From an uncultured Candidatus Saccharibacteria bacterium (GTDB lineage: Bacteria; Patescibacteriota; Minisyncoccia; UBA6257; UBA9933), in contig CAYIEP010000002.1 in NCBI GenBank assembly GCA_964362515.1, forward strand, positions 1 to 32,141: a stretch of 32,141 nucleotides of DNA, read 5' to 3'. Shown piece after piece: positions 1,125-17,096 of this stretch. The notes below the pieces were generated by a model. It saw nothing but the letters and a program-made list of their open reading frames with translations, was not told the origin of the DNA and searched no databases. The stretch's first letter is position 1. Each line of letters begins with the position of its first letter. The translations under genes were made by a program, and so were the position numbers.

Positions 1125-2843
1125 ATGATTGAAAATATTCGCCATTCATTAAGCCATGTCTTGGCAATGTCTGTTTTGGAAAAGTTTCCAAAAGCAAAGC
1201 TTGGGATAGGACCCGTTATTGAAAACGGTTTTTATTATGATTTTGGCAATATAAAGATTAATCCGGAAGACTTGACGATTTTTGAAAAAAGGATGCGCGA
1301 ACTTGTAAAAACGGGTCTTAAATTCGAAGGAAAGAAAATATCGCCGAGTGAAGCTAAAAAACTTTTTAAAAATCAGCCGTATAAATTAGAGCTCATTAAA
1401 GAATTTTCAAAAGATAAAAAACAATTAACCGCTTATAAAAGCGGGCATTTCATTGATTTATGCAAGGGCGGCCATATTAAAACAACCAAAGAAATAAACC
1501 CCGACTCTTTCAAGCTGATAAAACTCGCCGGCGCCTACTGGAAAGGAAGCGAAAAAAACCCGATGCTCACAAGAATTTACGGCGTAGCTTTTGATAATAA
1601 AAACGGGCTGGAAGAATATTTAAAAAAACAAGAAGAAGCCCGGCGTTGCGACCACAGAATTATTGGAGAAAAATTGGAACTTTTTATGATTGACGACGAT
1701 ATCGGAAAAGGGTTGCCGCTTTATCTGCCTAACGGGTATAAAATAAGAAAAAAACTTGAAGATTATATTTATAACATAGAAAAACAAAACGGCTATCTCC
1801 ACGTCCTTACCCCTCACATCGCCAAAGAAGCGATTTATCTAAAATCCGGACATTTAGCTCATTACAAAGAAGATATGTATCCCCCTATTTTGATTGATAA
1901 CGAGCGTTATTATCTTAAACCGATGAATTGCCCCCATCATCATTCAATTTATAAAAATAAGCAAAGAAGTTATAAGGAGCTTCCCTTAAGAATTGCCGAA
2001 TTCGGAACCGTTTATAGGCGCGAAATGTCCGGCGTTGTCTCGGGTCTTATAAGAATGCGCGGCTTTACTCAAAACGACGCCCATATTTATACCAACGAAG
2101 AGAATCTTGAAAAAGAGCTTACAAGTATTCTGAAATTTCATAAAAAAATTTATGACGATTTAAATATTAAAGATTATTGGTACAGGCTTTCTCTTCCGGA
2201 TTTCAAAAACAAAGAAAAATTCGGCGATATAAAAAATAAAAAAATGTGGCAAAAAGGCTCGTTAATATTAAAAAAAGTCCTTAAAGATAATAGTTATGAA
2301 TTTGTTGAGGGGAAAGGCGAAGCCACTTTCTACGGGCCGAAAATTGATATCCAGAGCAAAGACCTTTACGGCAAGGAAGACACAATAGCCACCATTCAGG
2401 TTGATTATTATTCCGCGTCAAAATTCAATCTTTCATATATAGATAAAAACGGCAAGGAAAAACCGGCGATTATTATTCATAGGGCTATTTTGGGTTCATT
2501 TGACAGATTTATGGCTTTTTTAATAGAAAAAACCTGCGGTAATCTGCCATTTTGGCTTTCACCCGTTCAGGTTAAAGTTCTTACCGTAAGCGAAAAACAA
2601 AAAGAATACGCCCAAAAAGTATTTCTTGAGCTTCAAAAAGTCGGGATTGACGCGAGCCTTGCTCCGTTTGATGAAACTCTCGGGAAAAAAATCCGTGAAG
2701 CGGAAATTAAAAAAATACCGTATATCGTTATAATTGGAGAAAAAGAAACGGAAAAAAACACGATTAATATCAGAAGACTCGGCAAACAATACGAAACGAC
2801 GATGGAAGAATTTAAAAATTCTCTAACTAAAGAGTTGCGATGA
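1125..2843 (+). CDS. thrS: threonine--tRNA ligase, starting at the editing domain (no N-terminal TGS domain)
   Basis: Editing motifs RHSLSHVL and LCKGGH. Class II core MNCPHHH, FGTVYRREMSG, RGFTQNDAHIY, FYGPKID. C-terminal anticodon-binding domain. 572 aa. Confidence 0.93.
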   Translation: MIENIRHSLSHVLAMSVLEKFPKAKLGIGPVIENGFYYDFGNIKINPEDLTIFEKRMRELVKTGLKFEGKKISPSEAKKLFKNQPYKLELIKEFSKDKKQLTAYKSGHFIDLCKGGHIKTTKEINPDSFKLIKLAGAYWKGSEKNPMLTRIYGVAFDNKNGLEEYLKKQEEARRCDHRIIGEKLELFMIDDDIGKGLPLYLPNGYKIRKKLEDYIYNIEKQNGYLHVLTPHIAKEAIYLKSGHLAHYKEDMYPPILIDNERYYLKPMNCPHHHSIYKNKQRSYKELPLRIAEFGTVYRREMSGVVSGLIRMRGFTQNDAHIYTNEENLEKELTSILKFHKKIYDDLNIKDYWYRLSLPDFKNKEKFGDIKNKKMWQKGSLILKKVLKDNSYEFVEGKGEATFYGPKIDIQSKDLYGKEDTIATIQVDYYSASKFNLSYIDKNGKEKPAIIIHRAILGSFDRFMAFLIEKTCGNLPFWLSPVQVKVLTVSEKQKEYAQKVFLELQKVGIDASLAPFDETLGKKIREAEIKKIPYIVIIGEKETEKNTINIRRLGKQYETTMEEFKNSLTKELR

Positions 2844-3724
2844 AGATAATTGTCATTCTCGGGCCGACCTCTTCGGGAAAATCGGATTTAGCGGTAAAAC
2901 TGGCCCAAAAATTTAACGGAGAAATAGTTTCCGCCGACTCCAGACAGGTTTATAGGGAATTAGATATTGGAAGCGGAAAAATAACGAAAAAAGAAATGAA
3001 AGGCGTTAAGCATTATCTCCTTGACGTCGCCGACCCCAAAAAAAATTTTACGGTTGTTCAATACCAAAAACTGGCAAAAGAAGCCGTTAAAAAAATAGTC
3101 AAAAACGGCAAATTGCCGATTATCTGCGGAGGAACGGGTTTTTATATTGATTCTTTAATATACGATTACAAATTTCCCGAAACTAAACCGCGCTTAAAAT
3201 TAAGAAAAGAGCTTGATAAAAAAGAGATAAAAGAACTTCTTAAAATTTTAGAAAAAATAAATCCGAAATTTTATAAAAAAATAGACAAAAATAACAAAAG
3301 AAGAATTATCCGCGCCATTGAACTGACGAAAGAAATCGGAGATATTCCGAAAATTATTAAAAATTACCCCTATCAATACTTGAAAATAGGAATTAAAAAA
3401 GATTCGGGAACTCTTAAAAAACTGATATATAAAAGGCTTAAAAAAAGAATAAAAGCCGGAATGCTCAATGAGGTTAAAAAACTCATAAAAAAGGGCGTGA
3501 GCCATAAAAGATTGGAAGATTTGGGGATGGAATACCGTTATGTTTCCCGTTATTTAAGAGGGTTAATCAACAAGCAGGAAATGATTGATTTAATTAACAG
3601 AGAACACCGACGCTATTCAAAACGCCAAATGACGTGGTTTAAAAAAGACAAAGAAATTAATTGGATAACAAGAGAAAAAGAAGCCTACGACCTTATTAAA
3701 AATTTTATGTCACCCCGGCCTTAA
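2840..3724 (+). CDS. miaA: tRNA dimethylallyltransferase
   Basis: P-loop GPTSSGKS, SADSRQVYRELDIGSGK, CGGTGFY, YSKRQMTWF. ATGA start/stop overlap with thrS. Confidence 0.92.
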   Translation: MKIIVILGPTSSGKSDLAVKLAQKFNGEIVSADSRQVYRELDIGSGKITKKEMKGVKHYLLDVADPKKNFTVVQYQKLAKEAVKKIVKNGKLPIICGGTGFYIDSLIYDYKFPETKPRLKLRKELDKKEIKELLKILEKINPKFYKKIDKNNKRRIIRAIELTKEIGDIPKIIKNYPYQYLKIGIKKDSGTLKKLIYKRLKKRIKAGMLNEVKKLIKKGVSHKRLEDLGMEYRYVSRYLRGLINKQEMIDLINREHRRYSKRQMTWFKKDKEINWITREKEAYDLIKNFMSPRP

Positions 3725-13264: not shown

Positions 13265-13864
13265 CTATTTTCTAATTTCCAATAAGGTTCCTTTCATTCC
13301 CGGAACCGCGCCTTTTATCGTTAAAATATTTTTTTCTTTATCCACTCCGACTATTTCTAAATTTTTAACGGTTGTTCTTTCCAGTCCCATCCGACCGGCC
13401 ATTTTTCTGCCCTTTATCGTTCTTTGCGGCGCCGTGGCGCCGATTGAACCAGGAGCTCTGTGTCTGTCTTTCTGGCCATGGCTTTTTGGCCCGCCGCCGA
13501 ATCCGTGACGCTTAACAACGCCCTGAAATCCTTTTCCCTTACTTAATCCGCTTACCTTTATTTTGTCTCCTTCGTTAAATTGGCTCACATCAAGAATGTC
13601 TCCGATTTTTAACTGCGGATTTTCAATTCTGAATTCTTTAAGATTTCTGAAATTGCCTAATTCTTTTAAGTGACCCTTTAGGGACTTGTTTAATTTTTTC
13701 TTTGACGGATCAAAACCCGCTTGAATGGCGTCGTAGCCGTCTTTTTCTTTACTTTTTATTTGGGTTACTGAAACCGGACCGGCTAAAACCAAAGTAACCG
13801 GCACAATTTTGTCGTTTTTCCAAATCTGCGACATTTTAAGTTTTTTTCCAAGAATGAATGGCAT
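13265..13864 (-). CDS. rplC: 50S ribosomal protein L3
   Basis: ILGKKLKMSQIW ... GKGFQGVVKRHGFGGGPKSHGQKDRHRAPGSIGA. Confidence 0.96.
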   Translation of the reverse strand: MPFILGKKLKMSQIWKNDKIVPVTLVLAGPVSVTQIKSKEKDGYDAIQAGFDPSKKKLNKSLKGHLKELGNFRNLKEFRIENPQLKIGDILDVSQFNEGDKIKVSGLSKGKGFQGVVKRHGFGGGPKSHGQKDRHRAPGSIGATAPQRTIKGRKMAGRMGLERTTVKNLEIVGVDKEKNILTIKGAVPGMKGTLLEIRK

Positions 13865-13880
13865 AATTATAGATAACTAA

Positions 13881-13906
13881 AAACAGCCAAACTTAGCCGG
13901 CTGTTT
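13881..13906 (-). terminator. Candidate attenuator/terminator hairpin 16 nt upstream of the rplC ATG
   Basis: Minus sense AAACAGCC-GGCUAAGUUU-GGCUGUUU, running into UUUUUAGUU. Its 5' arm can instead pair in an upstream helix set: UUAGCC 13928-13923 with GGCUAA 13898-13893, and GCUGU 13916-13912 with ACAGC 13904-13900. Confidence 0.35.
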
Positions 13907-13973
13907 CTGCTACAGCTTTGTTGGCTAAATCTTTGCGTATTCAAACCATGGTTCCGGTAAAAACCATTGAATA

Positions 13974-14002
13974 AAAGTAGCAGATAAATAAGATTGTGTC
14001 AA
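13974..14002 (-). promoter_or_regulatory. Candidate sigma70-type promoter for rplC and downstream genes
   Basis: Minus sense TTGACA (14002-13997), 17-nt spacer ending in TGC (extended -10), then TACTTT (13979-13974). It lies about 290 nt downstream of a strong terminator. Confidence 0.35.
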
Positions 14003-14020
14003 TTTTTTTTAAACACGCAA

Positions 14021-14100
14021 AGCCGTATAAGCGGCTACGACGGTGACCTCCAATTTTTTTTAGATTTGTGAGTGCTCGGTTCGTAGCCGCTTATACGGCT
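14021..14100. repeat. Perfect 20-bp inverted repeat with a 40-nt spacer
   Basis: agccgtataagcggctacga (14021-14040) is the exact reverse complement of tcgtagccgcttatacggct (14081-14100). Each arm can also fold alone as AGCCG-6 nt-CGGCU. Confidence 0.9.
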
Positions 14101-14138
14101 CTATTGGTCGTTTATATATTACTTTGAATTACGAAATT

Positions 14139-14229
14139 AGACAAACCCAAAATTCTTTCTGAAATCTTAACGGAAGCGGGCGTAAGCGGTCCGCCGATTG
14201 GCGGAGAAGAAATAATTTCGGGTTTGTCT
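14139..14229 (-). ncRNA. 91-nt long imperfect hairpin with a GC-rich apex (candidate small structured RNA or regulatory stem; family unknown)
   Basis: 14139-14154 pairs with 14214-14229 at 15 of 16 positions. The single A-C mismatch on the plus strand is a U-G pair on the minus strand. The helix continues at 14156-14160/14208-14212. Apical hairpin tccgcc-gatt-ggcgga at 14190-14205. A TTCGCA-16-TATTAT promoter-like pair lies at 14265-14238. Confidence 0.35.
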
Positions 14230-14290
14230 GATAGCTAATAATATATTTGAGTCCGGCTTTGCGAAAGAAATCGTTTCTATTTCTGAAAGT

Positions 14291-14316
14291 AAACAAAACC
14301 CCGCCTTTCGGCGGGG
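14291..14316 (-). terminator. Strong intrinsic terminator 88 nt downstream of rpsJ
   Basis: Minus sense CCCCGCC-GAAA-GGCGGGG (7 G/C-rich bp with a GNRA loop), followed directly by UUUUGUUU. The plus-sense reading has no U-tract. Confidence 0.7.
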
Positions 14317-14403
14317 AATTGGAAGGACATTCCTCTGTCGATATCGTCGCAAGGGAATATTCAACACTCACAAAATGAATTATATACGCGTATTAACCAA
14401 AAG

Positions 14404-14736
14404 TCAAATCATTTTAATTTCCACATCGACTCCGGCCGGCAAATTAAGACTTGAAAGCGCTTCAATTATTTTTTGACTGGGATTTAAAATATCAATAAGA
14501 CGCTTATGGATTCTTAACTCAAATTGCTCTCTGGAATCCTTATGAACAAAAGTTGAACGATTAACCGTGTATTTCTTGAATTCCGAAGGCAAAGGAACCG
14601 GACCGATAATTTCTCCGCCGTTTCTTACGGCGGTTTCAATTATCTGCTTGGCGGAATTATCTATCAGCTTATGGTCGTAAGATTTTATTTTCAGCCTTAA
14701 TTTATTTTGTAAATTTTCTTCCTTCTTCTTGGCCAC
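14404..14736 (-). CDS. rpsJ: 30S ribosomal protein S10
   Basis: KLRLKIKSYDHKLIDNSAKQIIETA ... GPVPLP ... FVHKDSREQFELRIHKRLIDI. Confidence 0.96.
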   Translation of the reverse strand: MAKKKEENLQNKLRLKIKSYDHKLIDNSAKQIIETAVRNGGEIIGPVPLPSEFKKYTVNRSTFVHKDSREQFELRIHKRLIDILNPSQKIIEALSSLNLPAGVDVEIKMI

Positions 14737-14749
14737 GCTTAATATTTAT

Positions 14750-15949
14750 TTAATTTATAATTTTAGTAACAACTCCGGCGCCAACCGTTTTGCCTCCTTC
14801 TCTGATGGCAAATCTTTGTTTTTCTTCAAGAGCGACCGGGGCAATTAGTTTAATCACAATATTAACGGTGTCTCCGGGCATAACCATTTCAATCCCTGAA
14901 GGTAAAATTACTTCTCCGGTGACATCGGTTGTTCTCATATAGAACTGCGGTTTATATCCCTTACAGAATGGGGTATGACGTCCGCCTTCTTCTTTGTTAA
15001 GAACATAAACTTCCGCCTCAAATTCCGCGTGAGGAGTAATGCTCCCCGGCTTCGCGAGAACTTGGCCTCTTTCAACGTCTTCTTTTTTAAGACTTCTTAA
15101 AAGTATCCCCACATTGTCTCCGGCGCGGCCTTCATCAAGAATCTTATTAAACATTTCAATTCCCGTAACAATAGTTTTCTGGGTCGGTTTTATTCCGATT
15201 ATTTCCAATTCTTCATTAACTTTAACGATTCCTCTTTCCGCTCTTCCGGTAACAACGGTTCCTCTTCCTTCTATTGAGAAAATGTCTTCTACCGGCATCA
15301 AAAACGGCTTATCTATTTCTCTTACCGGCTCGGGAATATATTCATCCAAAGCCTTAATAAGCTCCAAAATCGGCTTAATAGCTTCGTCATCGACTGATTT
15401 CGCCTCTAAAGCTTTAAGGGCGGAACCTTTTATTATCGGGATTTCATCTCCCGGAAAATTATATTTTTTCAAAAGTTCCCTTATTTCCGCTTCAACCAAA
15501 CTAACGAGTTCCGGATCATCGACTTGGTCAACTTTATTTATAAAAACCACGACCGCCGGAACGCCAACTTGTCTAGCCAAAAGAATATGTTCTCTGGTTT
15601 GGGGCATCGGGCCATCAGTCGCGGCAACAACTAAAATAGCGCCGTCCATTTGCGCCGCTCCGGTAATCATATTTTTGATATAATCGGCGTGGCCAGGAGC
15701 GTCAATATGAGCGTAATGCCTTTTTTCCGATTGATATTCGGAATGATGAAGCGCGATGGTAATGCCTCTGGCTTTTTCTTCCGGAGCATTATCAATATCG
15801 TCAACCTTTTCGGCTTTTTCAATAAGCCCCTTTAATTTAAGAACATTCATTATCGCCGCGGTAAGGGTTGTCTTGCCATGGTCAACGTGGCCGATTGTTC
15901 CAACGTTGATGTGCGGTTTAGTTCTTTCAAATTTTGCTTTTTCCGCCAT
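14750..15949 (-). CDS. tuf: elongation factor Tu
   Basis: [31 protein letters not shown], and a full-length match by eye to EF-Tu (399 aa). Confidence 0.98.
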
Positions 15950-15996
15950 AATAATTTTAATTTAATTACTGCTATTATATTTATCGACTCTTAAAA

Positions 15997-16023
15997 TTTA
16001 TATCATTCAATAATTATTGTCAA
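15997..16023 (-). promoter_or_regulatory. Candidate promoter upstream of tuf
   Basis: Minus sense TTGACA (16023-16018), then either a 15-nt spacer with TGA-TATAAA or a 17-nt spacer with TAAATT. AT-rich context, so a chance match is possible. Confidence 0.3.
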
Positions 16024-16041
16024 TATTCGCGTTTCTTAAAC

Positions 16042-16392
16042 TCAAACCAGCTCCACTATAGACATTCTCGCTCCGTCATTTTTTCTTCTTTTAACTCCTT
16101 TGATTATTCTTAAATATCCGCCATTTCTGTCTTTGTATCTTTTCGCGATATCGTAAAAAAGTTTCTCTGCCGACTTCTTGCTTATCCTGCTTATTATTAC
16201 TCTATGCGAAGCTAGATTCTGTTTTTTGGCCAACGTTATTAATTTCTCAACTTTCGGTCTTAATTCTTTCGCTTTTGCTTCCGTTGTTTCAATTCTTTCT
16301 TTTAAAATAATATTATTAACCAATCCCTTGAAAAGAGCTGTTCTTTGGCCTTTTTCTCTGTGAAATTTTCTTCCTTTGTTTAAGTGCCTCAT
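16042..16392 (-). CDS. rplQ: 50S ribosomal protein L17
   Basis: MRHLNKGRKFHREKGQRTALFKGL ... ETTEAKAKELRP ... YLRI. Confidence 0.95.
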   Translation of the reverse strand: MRHLNKGRKFHREKGQRTALFKGLVNNIILKERIETTEAKAKELRPKVEKLITLAKKQNLASHRVIISRISKKSAEKLFYDIAKRYKDRNGGYLRIIKGVKRRKNDGARMSIVELV

Positions 16393-16394
16393 TT

Positions 16395-17096
16395 TTACTC
16401 TTTTATTTTGATGTCTGAAATTTTGCTGAAATGGTCAATTAAAACATTACAGGCTTTATGCAGGGCGCTTGACGGAGAAATACTTCCGTCTGTTTCTATA
16501 AAAAACTTTAATCTATTGTAGTCCGTTCTATCCCCCACGCGCATATTTTCAACGGAAAAATTAACCTTAACGATAGGAGTAAAAATAGCGTCTATGGCAA
16601 TCGTTTTAATCGGCAATTTTTCCATTTTTCTCGCTTCCACCGGAATATAACCAAGGCCCTTCTCAACGGTAATTTCCATTTCCAATTCAGAACTTTTTGA
16701 AGTTAATGTCGCTATATGGGCATCTTCGTTAATTATCTGAACTTGGTCGTTTGTCTTAATGTTTGAAGCTATTATCTTTTTCTCTCCTTTTGCTTTTAAG
16801 ATAAATACTTGAGGCTCTTCCGCGAAAAATTTAAATCTTATTCTCTTAAGATTAAGGGTTATTTCCATGACGTCTTCTTTTATTCCGGGAATTGTGGAGA
16901 ATTCGTGGTCAACGCCTTTTATTTTTATTTGAGTAACGGCCGCTCCGGGAAGAGAAGAAAATAAAACCCTGCGCAAAGCGTTCCCTGCGGTTAAACCGTA
17001 TCCGGCGTAAAGACCCTCCACCTCAAAAACTCCCTCTTTATCGGTTTCAGAAATTTTCTTTATTTTTACCGTTTCGCTTAATCTTGCGTATTCCAT
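16395..17096 (-). CDS. rpoA: DNA-directed RNA polymerase alpha subunit, N-terminal domain only (233 aa)
   Basis: GNALRRVLFSSLPGAAVTQIKIKGVDHEFSTIPGIKEDVMEITLNLK are alpha-NTD motifs. The ORF stops at residue 233 and rplQ starts 2 nt later. No linker or CTD sequence is present. Confidence 0.93.
   Translation of the reverse strand: MEYARLSETVKIKKISETDKEGVFEVEGLYAGYGLTAGNALRRVLFSSLPGAAVTQIKIKGVDHEFSTIPGIKEDVMEITLNLKRIRFKFFAEEPQVFILKAKGEKKIIASNIKTNDQVQIINEDAHIATLTSKSSELEMEITVEKGLGYIPVEARKMEKLPIKTIAIDAIFTPIVKVNFSVENMRVGDRTDYNRLKFFIETDGSISPSSALHKACNVLIDHFSKISDIKIKE

Follow-up and report, generated by a model that had tools for sequence, protein, structure and literature searches.

Why should rpsJ and rplC lie 539 nt apart in a ribosomal-protein gene cluster of the Candidate Phyla Radiation, a group that makes up a large share of bacterial diversity and whose members have tiny genomes? 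The question is raised by contig CAYIEP010000002.1 (assembly GCA_964362515.1) of an uncultured Candidatus Saccharibacteria bacterium, of which positions 1 to 32,141, hereafter the window, were analysed. An earlier note on this DNA had described the gap between the two genes as an undescribed RNA module of the S10 operon. Its coordinates are exact (13865-14403, both genes on the minus strand), and its observation holds in part: the RNA elements are real, conserved, covarying, encoded on the sense strand and absent from Rfam, but they are not one module and they are not bound to the S10 operon. We consider it probable, at roughly 70%, that the gap is a composite of a small RNA (RNA A), a non-conserved hairpin, a second small RNA (RNA B), and a promoter (P2) with the leader of rplC, and that A and B form a dedicated pair of RNAs of the Parcubacteria. 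This Parcubacteria-wide pair is the entity of interest, and its S10-operon location in this clade is incidental.

RNA A and RNA B

Relatives whose ribosomal protein L3 is 75-80% identical to that of the window, some of them named Wolfebacteria, also have long non-coding stretches before rplC. Comparison of their spacers by blastn gives four conserved blocks (A, B, P2 and C) and one variable region, and the same four blocks are common to the window and relatives at 78-80% L3 identity. With positions p counted along the minus strand from 14403, block A of the window lies at p33-113, B at p303-384, P2 at p402-430 and C at p472-525, while the long hairpin at p174-268 is not conserved. Terminator-like sites are in excess: eight were found against 1.2 expected from shuffles.

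RNA A (14371-14291, minus strand; ~81 nt) is predicted to consist of a 5' GUGAGUG (a1, 14371-14365), a hairpin (hpA, 14360-14327) with the loop GCGACGAUAUCGAC, the stretch CCUUCCAAUU (segment a2 reads CUUCCAAUU, 14325-14317) and a terminator, CCCCGCC-GAAA-GGCGGGG followed by UUUUGUUU (14316-14291). The latter is the GNRA-capped terminator recognised in the earlier note; its seven G-C pairs and the U run (14316-14299 together) have the form of an intrinsic, Rho-independent terminator, with a U run immediately behind a G+C-rich hairpin on the strand that is transcribed. Upstream lies the promoter-like site that had likewise been noticed before, here called P1 (14407-14379, minus strand): TTGACT-17-TATAAT, with 11 of 12 matches, the -35 box at 14407-14402 and the -10 box at 14384-14379. 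Its hexamers and their separation agree with a sigma-70-type promoter (-35/-10 hexamers, 16-18-nt spacing), although a consensus match is not proof of function. The -35 box overlaps the TGA stop codon of rpsJ (14406-14404), and GUGAGUG begins 7 nt past the -10 box. Relatives likewise have TTGACA-17-TATAAT ending 6-8 nt 5' of GTGAGTG; there the V-D-I codons conserved at the C-terminus of S10 make up the -35 TTGACA, and it is the -10 box that overlaps the stop codon.

The same parts recur in most loci, where the A unit upstream of B is composed of a strong promoter, the 5'-GUGAGUG, the hairpin, CC(C)UUCCARU and a G+C-rich terminator. The hairpin comes in two size classes, the short one having the loop GCGAYGAUAUCGRC, and compensatory changes are seen at 8 of the 9 pairs of its base. 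A covariance model built from A alone (R1) recognises 14371-14316 in the window with 65.7 bits (E = 1.3e-14).

RNA B (14101-14020, minus strand; ~82 nt) would form a 21-bp stem (14101-14081 with 14040-14020) around a 40-nt loop, GAGCACUCAC...UGGAGGUCACC; the perfect 20-bp inverted repeat of the earlier note (14021-14040 / 14081-14100) lies in this stem. The loop holds b1, CACUCAC (14074-14068), with an A-rich linker next to it, and b2, AAUUGGAGG (14055-14047), followed by UCACC (14046-14042). Across loci the loop is nearly invariant in sequence and built in the same way, as GAGCACUCAC, an A-rich stretch of 10-20 nt and UGGAGGUCACC, with a length of 35-40 nt. The stem varies much more: among 67 distinct B sequences there are 50 distinct stem sequences. 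As alignment by MAFFT leaves the stems out of register, a register-free helix test was used, and the mean contiguous helix is 13.0 bp with cognate flanks compared to 4.6 bp when flanks are swapped between loci (67 distinct sequences). RNAalifold on the MAFFT alignment missed the outer stem and proposed only an invariant pairing within the loop. A TATAAT-like box usually stands 6-8 nt 5' of the stem across loci.

The GGAGGU of the B loop is a perfect Shine-Dalgarno (SD) sequence and is invariant across the loci retrieved by exact pattern. Only 7 of the 38 genes of the window (all open reading frames (ORFs) of at least 90 aa) have even a weak 4-mer match to such a sequence, and the ribosomal-protein genes of the window start after A/U-rich leaders; the genome thus makes hardly any use of SD sequences, and strong matches such as the GGAGGU of the B loop are very rare in the window. 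Partial copies of the 5' half of the B loop occur just upstream of a complete B, as GGAUCGAGCACUCAC twice in L209 (1760-1830) and as CACUCACACAAUCCC...AAUUGGA about 60-90 nt upstream in L102.

Pairing between A and B

Each half of the B loop has a complementary segment in A. In the helix that we call H1, the 5' half of the loop provides (G)CACUCAC, which is complementary over 7-8 bp to the 5' end of A, GUGAGUG(U/C); in the window this is the long-range complementarity of 14065-14074 with 14365-14374 that the earlier note had seen. Its eighth pair, 14364/14075, is A-C on the plus strand and U.G on the minus strand, again as reported there. In a joint alignment of A and B, 99% of the H1 cells are complementary, but they are invariant, and four further relatives all have the canonical B loop, so that they offer no b1 variants with which to test the helix. 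H1 is plausible from its conserved complementarity.

In the second helix, H2, the 3' half of the B loop contributes (A)YUGGAGG, to which the A segment CCUUCCARU is complementary over 8-12 bp, and here the pairing partners change together. In an independent test, the MAFFT alignment of A took no account of B, for which the invariant UGGAGG served as the anchor. The nucleotide just 5' of UGGAGG and the one that follows CCA then combine as C-G 18 times, U-A 12 times, U.G twice and A-U once, with one mismatch, and at the adjoining position 32 of 34 sequences are paired, by four pair types. The joint alignment (36 pairs of sequences) gives 94.1% paired cells for H2 against 85.9% on shuffling, a value that 0 of 500 shuffles reach, and a covariation score of 0.313 against 0.160, whereas slid registers pair in 37-50%. 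At pair 79/137 of this alignment we find G-C 19 times, A-U 13 times, G.U three times and U-A once, with none unpaired; pair 80/136 shows five standard pair types. Unusual B loops have matching A segments: CCUUUGGAGGU occurs with ACCUCCAAGG, AUCCUGGAGG with CCUCCAGGA, and AUAGC..GGAGG with CCUUUCGCUAU. The aligned sequences thus show for the predicted helix H2 what characterises base-pairing small RNAs, namely a complementarity that is kept by compensatory change.

Duplex energies agree with this. Calculated with RNAduplex, cognate A/B duplexes have -10.55 kcal/mol and swapped ones -9.4 kcal/mol (0 of 10,000 permutations); RNAcofold, which is unable to model pairing into a hairpin loop, returned no interaction. 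In the window a1:b1 (H1) has -14.5 and a2:b2 (H2) -11.2 kcal/mol, and the B loop alone folds b1 on b2, the opening of which costs about 7 kcal/mol. The segment of A that would face the SD sequence is anti-SD-like, being CCUUCC in most lineages and exactly CACCUCC in some. To judge from the order of the strands, H1, the A hairpin, H2 and the B stem would close a four-way junction.

Distribution of the pair

Loci with B were retrieved from a metagenome collection by an exact pattern of 21 bases of the B loop. It matched 115 stretches, where 2-3 chance matches are estimated for 21 bases; of the 80 stretches that were fetched, 77 are real and 3 are chance matches in G+C-rich coding DNA. About 27 of the 77 loci (designated here by L numbers) have B between rpsJ and rplC, and about 50 have it away from the S10 operon. 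The gene that comes next after B on the same strand is a homologue of hpf/raiA in about 21 of the 77 loci (60-130 nt off), murB in about 11 (20-118 nt off) and secA in about 9 (13-45 nt off). Look-ups of exact protein sequences place loci in Harrisonbacteria, Zambryskibacteria, Wolfebacteria and unclassified Patescibacteria. No RNA-binding or mobile-element gene recurs among the neighbours of the A/B loci. In 14 loci outside the S10 operon (L093, L100, L116, L121-L124, L126, L127, L130, L131, L145, L149 and L169) a gene for a GtrA-like membrane protein (ending ...WNFxGYKFxVF) precedes A by 33-63 nt in the same orientation, in the order gtrA-like, A, B, hpf or murB.

RNA A had no role in this retrieval. 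The model R1 nevertheless finds exactly one A in 70 of the loci retrieved through B, as well as in the window, L084, L090, L206 and L209, while it finds no A in 80 control S10 loci of other lineages (505 kb in total), a set of GTDB loci from among the L3 matches listed, with at most 59% identity, that was gathered for comparison and doubled as a negative control. The co-occurrence is therefore independent evidence that A and B belong together.

In most loci A precedes B by 110-410 nt on a common strand. The distance grows to 750 nt in L093 and L130 and to 1 kb in L121 and L145, and A is on the strand opposite to B in L111, L150 and L158, 3.6 kb away, and also in L167. Consequently A and B appear to be separate genes, given the opposite strands or kilobase distances in some lineages. 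The region between them is not conserved and measures from about 30 to more than 300 nt. Each of two contigs of 660 kb and 636 kb has a single match to B, which suggests one copy of B per genome.

The rplC promoter and leader

Downstream of B, the rplC operon appears to have a promoter of its own. P2 (14002-13974, minus strand) has a -35 box TTGACA (14002-13997), a 17-nt spacer ending in TG and a -10 box TACTTT (13979-13974), and is thus of the extended -10 type; it scored below the threshold of the promoter scan and was read directly from the sequence. By hexamers and spacing it resembles a sigma-70-type promoter, a consensus match of this sort again not being proof of function. The pattern TTGACA-N17-TGYTAnnnT occurs at the matching position in L084, L087, L090, L099, L143, L146, L168, L132, L206 and L208.

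Between P2 and rplC, the minimum free energy fold gives a first leader hairpin (13946-13969, minus strand), in place of which relatives have a hairpin of different sequence, CUGAAAUAAAAUGUUAAUAUUUAUUUCGG. Next comes element C (13932-13879, minus strand), made up of an upstream strand AGAUUUAGCC (13932-13923) and a hairpin, AAACAGCC-GGCUAAGUUU-GGCUGUUU, with a U run (about 13908-13879). This hairpin has the form of an intrinsic terminator (12 pairs and UUUUU), and its 10-nt loop (13898-13889, GGCUAAGUYU) is complementary to the upstream strand AGAUUUAGCC; C ends 15 nt before the AUG of rplC. It is kept in at least 18 loci, including L087, L207 and L208. The stem alternates between CAGCC/GGCUG and UGAGGG/CCCUCA while the loop is retained, and the helix of loop and upstream strand is 95% paired, with alternation of U-A with U.G and of C-G with U.G. 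A strain variant from the same aquifer (L081) has three single-nucleotide polymorphisms (SNPs), all in the C loop (L081:2019-2022, corresponding to 13890-13893 of the window), and all three keep or improve the pairing with AGAUUUAGCC. With this modest covariation, the rplC leader resembles an attenuator that contains a pseudoknot, a type known from several leaders of ribosomal-protein genes, and it is likely to be autoregulatory.

The nearest known leader is that of the E. coli S10 operon, where L4 mediates attenuation at a terminator hairpin upstream of rpsJ. Element C is similar in being a terminator hairpin with a U run some tens of nucleotides before a ribosomal-protein operon that includes rplD, the gene of L4, and it is conserved with its operon and not with what lies upstream. 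It is not a member of that family, however, and differs in standing upstream of rplC and downstream of rpsJ, in having no sequence or Rfam match, and in the pairing of loop and upstream strand, which the E. coli leader does not have.

The boundary between the leader and the RNA pair is drawn by relatives that have the one without the other. P2 and C are present in L087, where A and B are both missing; in L207, C follows tsaD, again without A and B; and in L208, from Wolfebacteria, rpsJ, a terminator, P2, C and rplC follow each other within 169 nt, with no A or B. Therefore P2 and C belong to rplC, and A and B together are a separate insert. The alternation of C-G with U.G in both H2 and element C would amount to mismatches on the other strand, which argues for RNA of the operon strand; G.U pairs, promoters and terminators all favour the minus strand, in agreement with the operon-sense RNA of the earlier note.

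Proposed function

We propose that RNA A would be transcribed from the promoter on the last codons of rpsJ, that its terminator would also end the tuf-rpsJ transcript, and that the rplC-rplD-rplW-rplB operon would restart from P2. The binding of A would open and occupy the B loop, in which b1 otherwise folds on b2, thereby masking GGAGGU and fixing the B stem. In the hpf lineage, where the B stem competes with a terminator beyond it, the pairing would on this mechanism set the degree of read-through into hpf. Since B of the window has an independent promoter behind it, the pair is here probably a free complex of two RNAs and not a regulator of S10; a free A:B complex, possibly on the translation apparatus, is for the window the most likely form. 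What it would do there can be suggested only tentatively. One possibility, which we rate well below even odds, is that A/B is a heterodimeric RNA of the whole superphylum, shaped as a four-way junction, that acts on the translation apparatus. The SD/anti-SD-like pairing could let it act on 16S 3' tails that are free, either as a decoy with its antidote or as a sensor, a function that we would connect with ribosome hibernation because of the hpf neighbourhood. Alternatively, the core of the A:B junction could bind a ligand or a protein.

Several observations weigh against a dedicated pair of separate RNAs. The promoters, the ends and the separateness of A and B are deduced from sequence, and that A and B act as a two-chain RNA is inferred as well. 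For B of the window no convincing -35 box is seen; a TATAAA at a distance of 9 nt is all that precedes it, and this B might originate by read-through. The invariance of the B loop is partly built in by the exact 21-base retrieval pattern; this pattern also fixes b1, so that H1 is without covariation, and there are a few A variants at H1 that are not compensated (GUGAGCG, GUGUGUG and GUGAAGUG). Kinship of the sequences inflates all significance obtained by shuffling, and R1 finds no A in 6 of 75 testable loci. In the pseudoknot of element C most changes are one-sided (wobble), with a double change at one pair only. Finally, in most loci outside the S10 operon a distance of 13-130 nt separates B from hpf, secA or murB downstream of it, which would also suit a cis-acting leader.

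This last point leads to the main rival, which we consider rather unlikely: B would be the 5' leader of the downstream gene and would respond to RNA, with A binding its loop in trans at two sites and thereby choosing between the B stem and a terminator, or altering the fate of the mRNA. The position and orientation of B before hpf, secA and murB in about 40 loci agree with it, as does the covariation behind the A:B pairing. So does the hpf lineage, in which the 3' strand of the B stem doubles as the 5' strand of a longer hairpin of -27 to -44 kcal/mol. This hairpin lies 0-80 nt downstream of B in L098, L112, L124, L127, L136, L140 and L157 and is followed by a U run in all but L124. As they share a strand, the B stem and the downstream terminator are mutually exclusive, the classic layout of a riboswitch-like platform, here ahead of hpf; in this lineage the binding of A could favour the B stem, and with it read-through, over the terminator. 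Such a terminator is, however, confined to this one lineage. The downstream gene varies by lineage while A stays linked one-to-one with B throughout, B seems to be single-copy and hence without a regulon, and in the window and its relatives P2 and a separate leader stand between B and rplC. Moreover, compact genomes put RNA genes close to the next ORF anyway.

The earlier note's picture of one structured RNA, or leader, of ~0.5 kb that is integral to the S10 operon, and in which the A/B helices are intramolecular, fares much worse, and we regard it as very unlikely. It is true that all elements are on the operon strand, that the terminator of A could be read through, and that most loci have A and B side by side in the same orientation. 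The fold of the whole spacer is also far more stable than that of shuffles, with z = -8.7, but the other strand gives practically the same score (-8.7 and -8.8 on the two strands), so that fold energy is uninformative on strand. A single RNA is hard to reconcile with the loci outside the S10 operon, with A and B on opposite strands or kilobases apart, with the variable region between them, with the strong promoter and terminator signals that bound A, and with the relatives that have the leader but not A/B.

Relation to known RNAs

It is equally improbable that A/B is a divergent form of a known housekeeping RNA such as raiA, SRP RNA, RNase P RNA, 6S RNA or a two-piece tmRNA, even though the pair seems to be single-copy, is widely conserved and stands next to housekeeping genes. 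A scan against Rfam 15, which the earlier note had proposed, gave no match at the gathering threshold in the whole window. In E-value mode, 13700-14550 and 10 other A/B loci returned generic hairpins alone (miRNA, roX2, snoRNA), far below threshold, and no family at E = 1-10 on A or B. The raiA model has no match at E <= 10 in the region of the window, nor at E <= 1 in 10 loci that include L098 and L102 with their hpf context. ARAGORN finds no tRNA or tmRNA gene in the window. Some resemblances were considered by eye: GAGGAAUGUCC recalls RNase P, but the stretch is a strand of the covarying hairpin and the strand order of a1, a2 and b1, b2 does not nest as it does there; a hammerhead was set aside because CUGAG is not CUGAUGA; and SRP helix 8, 5S rRNA and a tRNA-like cloverleaf were dropped as well. 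A search of the literature, which included the string GGAGGUCACC, found no description of A/B, with coverage that is incomplete and leaves an earlier description possible.

By context, the raiA motif RNA (ModT) is the nearest analogue. In Bacillota and Actinomycetota it is an abundant RNA whose function is unknown and which lies typically just upstream of raiA/hpf, with secA nearby (PMC10861870, PMC12968392). Like A/B, it is a conserved, apparently housekeeping non-coding RNA with a gene of its own, and in about 21 of the 77 loci A/B stands immediately before an hpf/raiA homologue, and in about 9 before secA, a position that mirrors the one of raiA (PMC10861870); in the window the neighbour is rplC. 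In contrast, raiA consists of one chain, about 200 nt long, with helices P1-P6(P8) and two pseudoknots (PMC10861870, PMC12968392), whereas A/B would consist of two units of ~80 nt that are joined by two intermolecular helices and lie on opposite strands in some lineages. The phyla differ too, and the Rfam model does not match A/B.

Other likenesses concern the mode of pairing. As in a T-box that binds its tRNA, B would contact a separate RNA by two distant short helices, and in one lineage its stem competes with a terminator; A is no tRNA, however, the A:B helices have 7-12 bp against 3-4 bp in the T-box, there is no match to the T-box family, and B is not always a leader. In CopA/CopT, RNAI/RNAII, U4/U6 snRNA and crRNA/tracrRNA, a single-stranded segment of one RNA pairs into a hairpin loop of the other, and U4/U6 also has two intermolecular helices beside an intramolecular hairpin that form a junction. 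Unlike the antisense systems, A and B are trans-encoded and not antisense to each other, have no plasmid, toxin or Cas context, and are chromosomal, apparently single-copy and conserved over the whole superphylum.

The gap and its surroundings

In the window tuf (15949-14750), rpsJ (14736-14404) and rplC (13864-13265), which is followed by rplD, rplW and rplB, are all on the minus strand. Upstream, 14404-17096 has the order rpoA-rplQ-tuf-rpsJ, in which tuf directly follows the end of the alpha operon; the same order is found in L084, L095, L103 and L132. The earlier note had named a chimeric join as what could undo its claim. Three assemblies from Hainich H51, independent of each other, contain the spacer with differences of 3, 2 and 7 SNPs, and a join or another assembly artefact is therefore excluded.

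Two other claims about the gap did not hold. Its G+C content, said to be clearly raised, is 0.39 compared to 0.371 for the window, and adjoining coding windows reach 0.49-0.54. Nor are rpsJ and rplC elsewhere always within a few tens of nucleotides: in the 80 GTDB loci, gaps of 150-1470 nt, some with inserted genes, are present in many Patescibacteria and in Flavobacteriaceae, those of the Patescibacteria measuring 200-1470 nt. By blastn the window spacer has no similarity to other long spacers of Patescibacteria. A coding role of the gap was also considered and rejected: the three ORFs in it (80, 66 and 43 aa) have no Pfam match, and the 80-aa ORF merely begins at the GTG of GUGAGUG. The 91-nt long hairpin of the earlier note does exist between A and B (14136 to about 14232, minus strand; about 95 nt), with 25-nt arms that are 88% complementary and a fold of -36.6 kcal/mol (z = -5.6), but it proves to be the one non-conserved part of the spacer. 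By blastn nothing like it is present in L084, L090 and L087, the closest relatives; the window has no second copy of it, and it is lineage-specific.

Elsewhere in the Patescibacteria, protein genes have been inserted at this junction (L001:1529-2991, L016:173-1577, L064:1930-3000, L087:1485-2560 and L090:1836-2417). They comprise RelE/ParE-like and CopG-like ORFs, an HTH/sigma-like ORF, a DUF3850 gene and unannotated ORFs of 150-210 aa, and the rpsJ-rplC junction of the Patescibacteria gives the impression of a hotspot for insertions and of a point at which the operon breaks. The Flavobacteriaceae spacers (150-520 nt; L041, L048, L058, L059, L066, L067, L069, L076, L077, L079 and L080, at about 2350-3000 in each) have a common block of ~90-180 nt with up to 96% identity between genera, which is unrelated to the window spacer and without an Rfam match at gathering thresholds in the six loci scanned.

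A feature of the DNA itself, be it a mobile-element remnant, a hotspot insertion or a set of inverted-repeat sites for a protein, is the least probable of all the explanations, since, for all that the junction attracts toxin-antitoxin-like, HTH and DUF3850 genes, that fold energy is symmetric between the strands and that the non-conserved long hairpin could be a remnant, there is no second spacer copy in the window, no similarity to phage records and no viral-contig match for the B motif, the stems change in sequence yet stay paired with strand-specific substitutions of the G.U type, the promoters and terminators are consistently oriented, and the synteny is stable across lineages.

Implications

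Taken together, the sequences point to a pair of small RNAs, conserved and probably single-copy, that is kept together across several candidate phyla and whose intermolecular pairing is backed by covariation. In the literature searched, no paper was found on a lineage-specific non-coding RNA from bacteria of the Candidate Phyla Radiation. If true, A/B would be a rare bacterial structured RNA made of two separately encoded chains. In the organisms of this clade a break after rpsJ divides the classical S10 operon, and the operon led by rplC has a candidate autoregulatory leader. The neighbourhood of hpf, secA and ribosomal-protein genes, together with the SD/anti-SD-like pairing, makes a link of the RNA pair to the control of translation directly testable.

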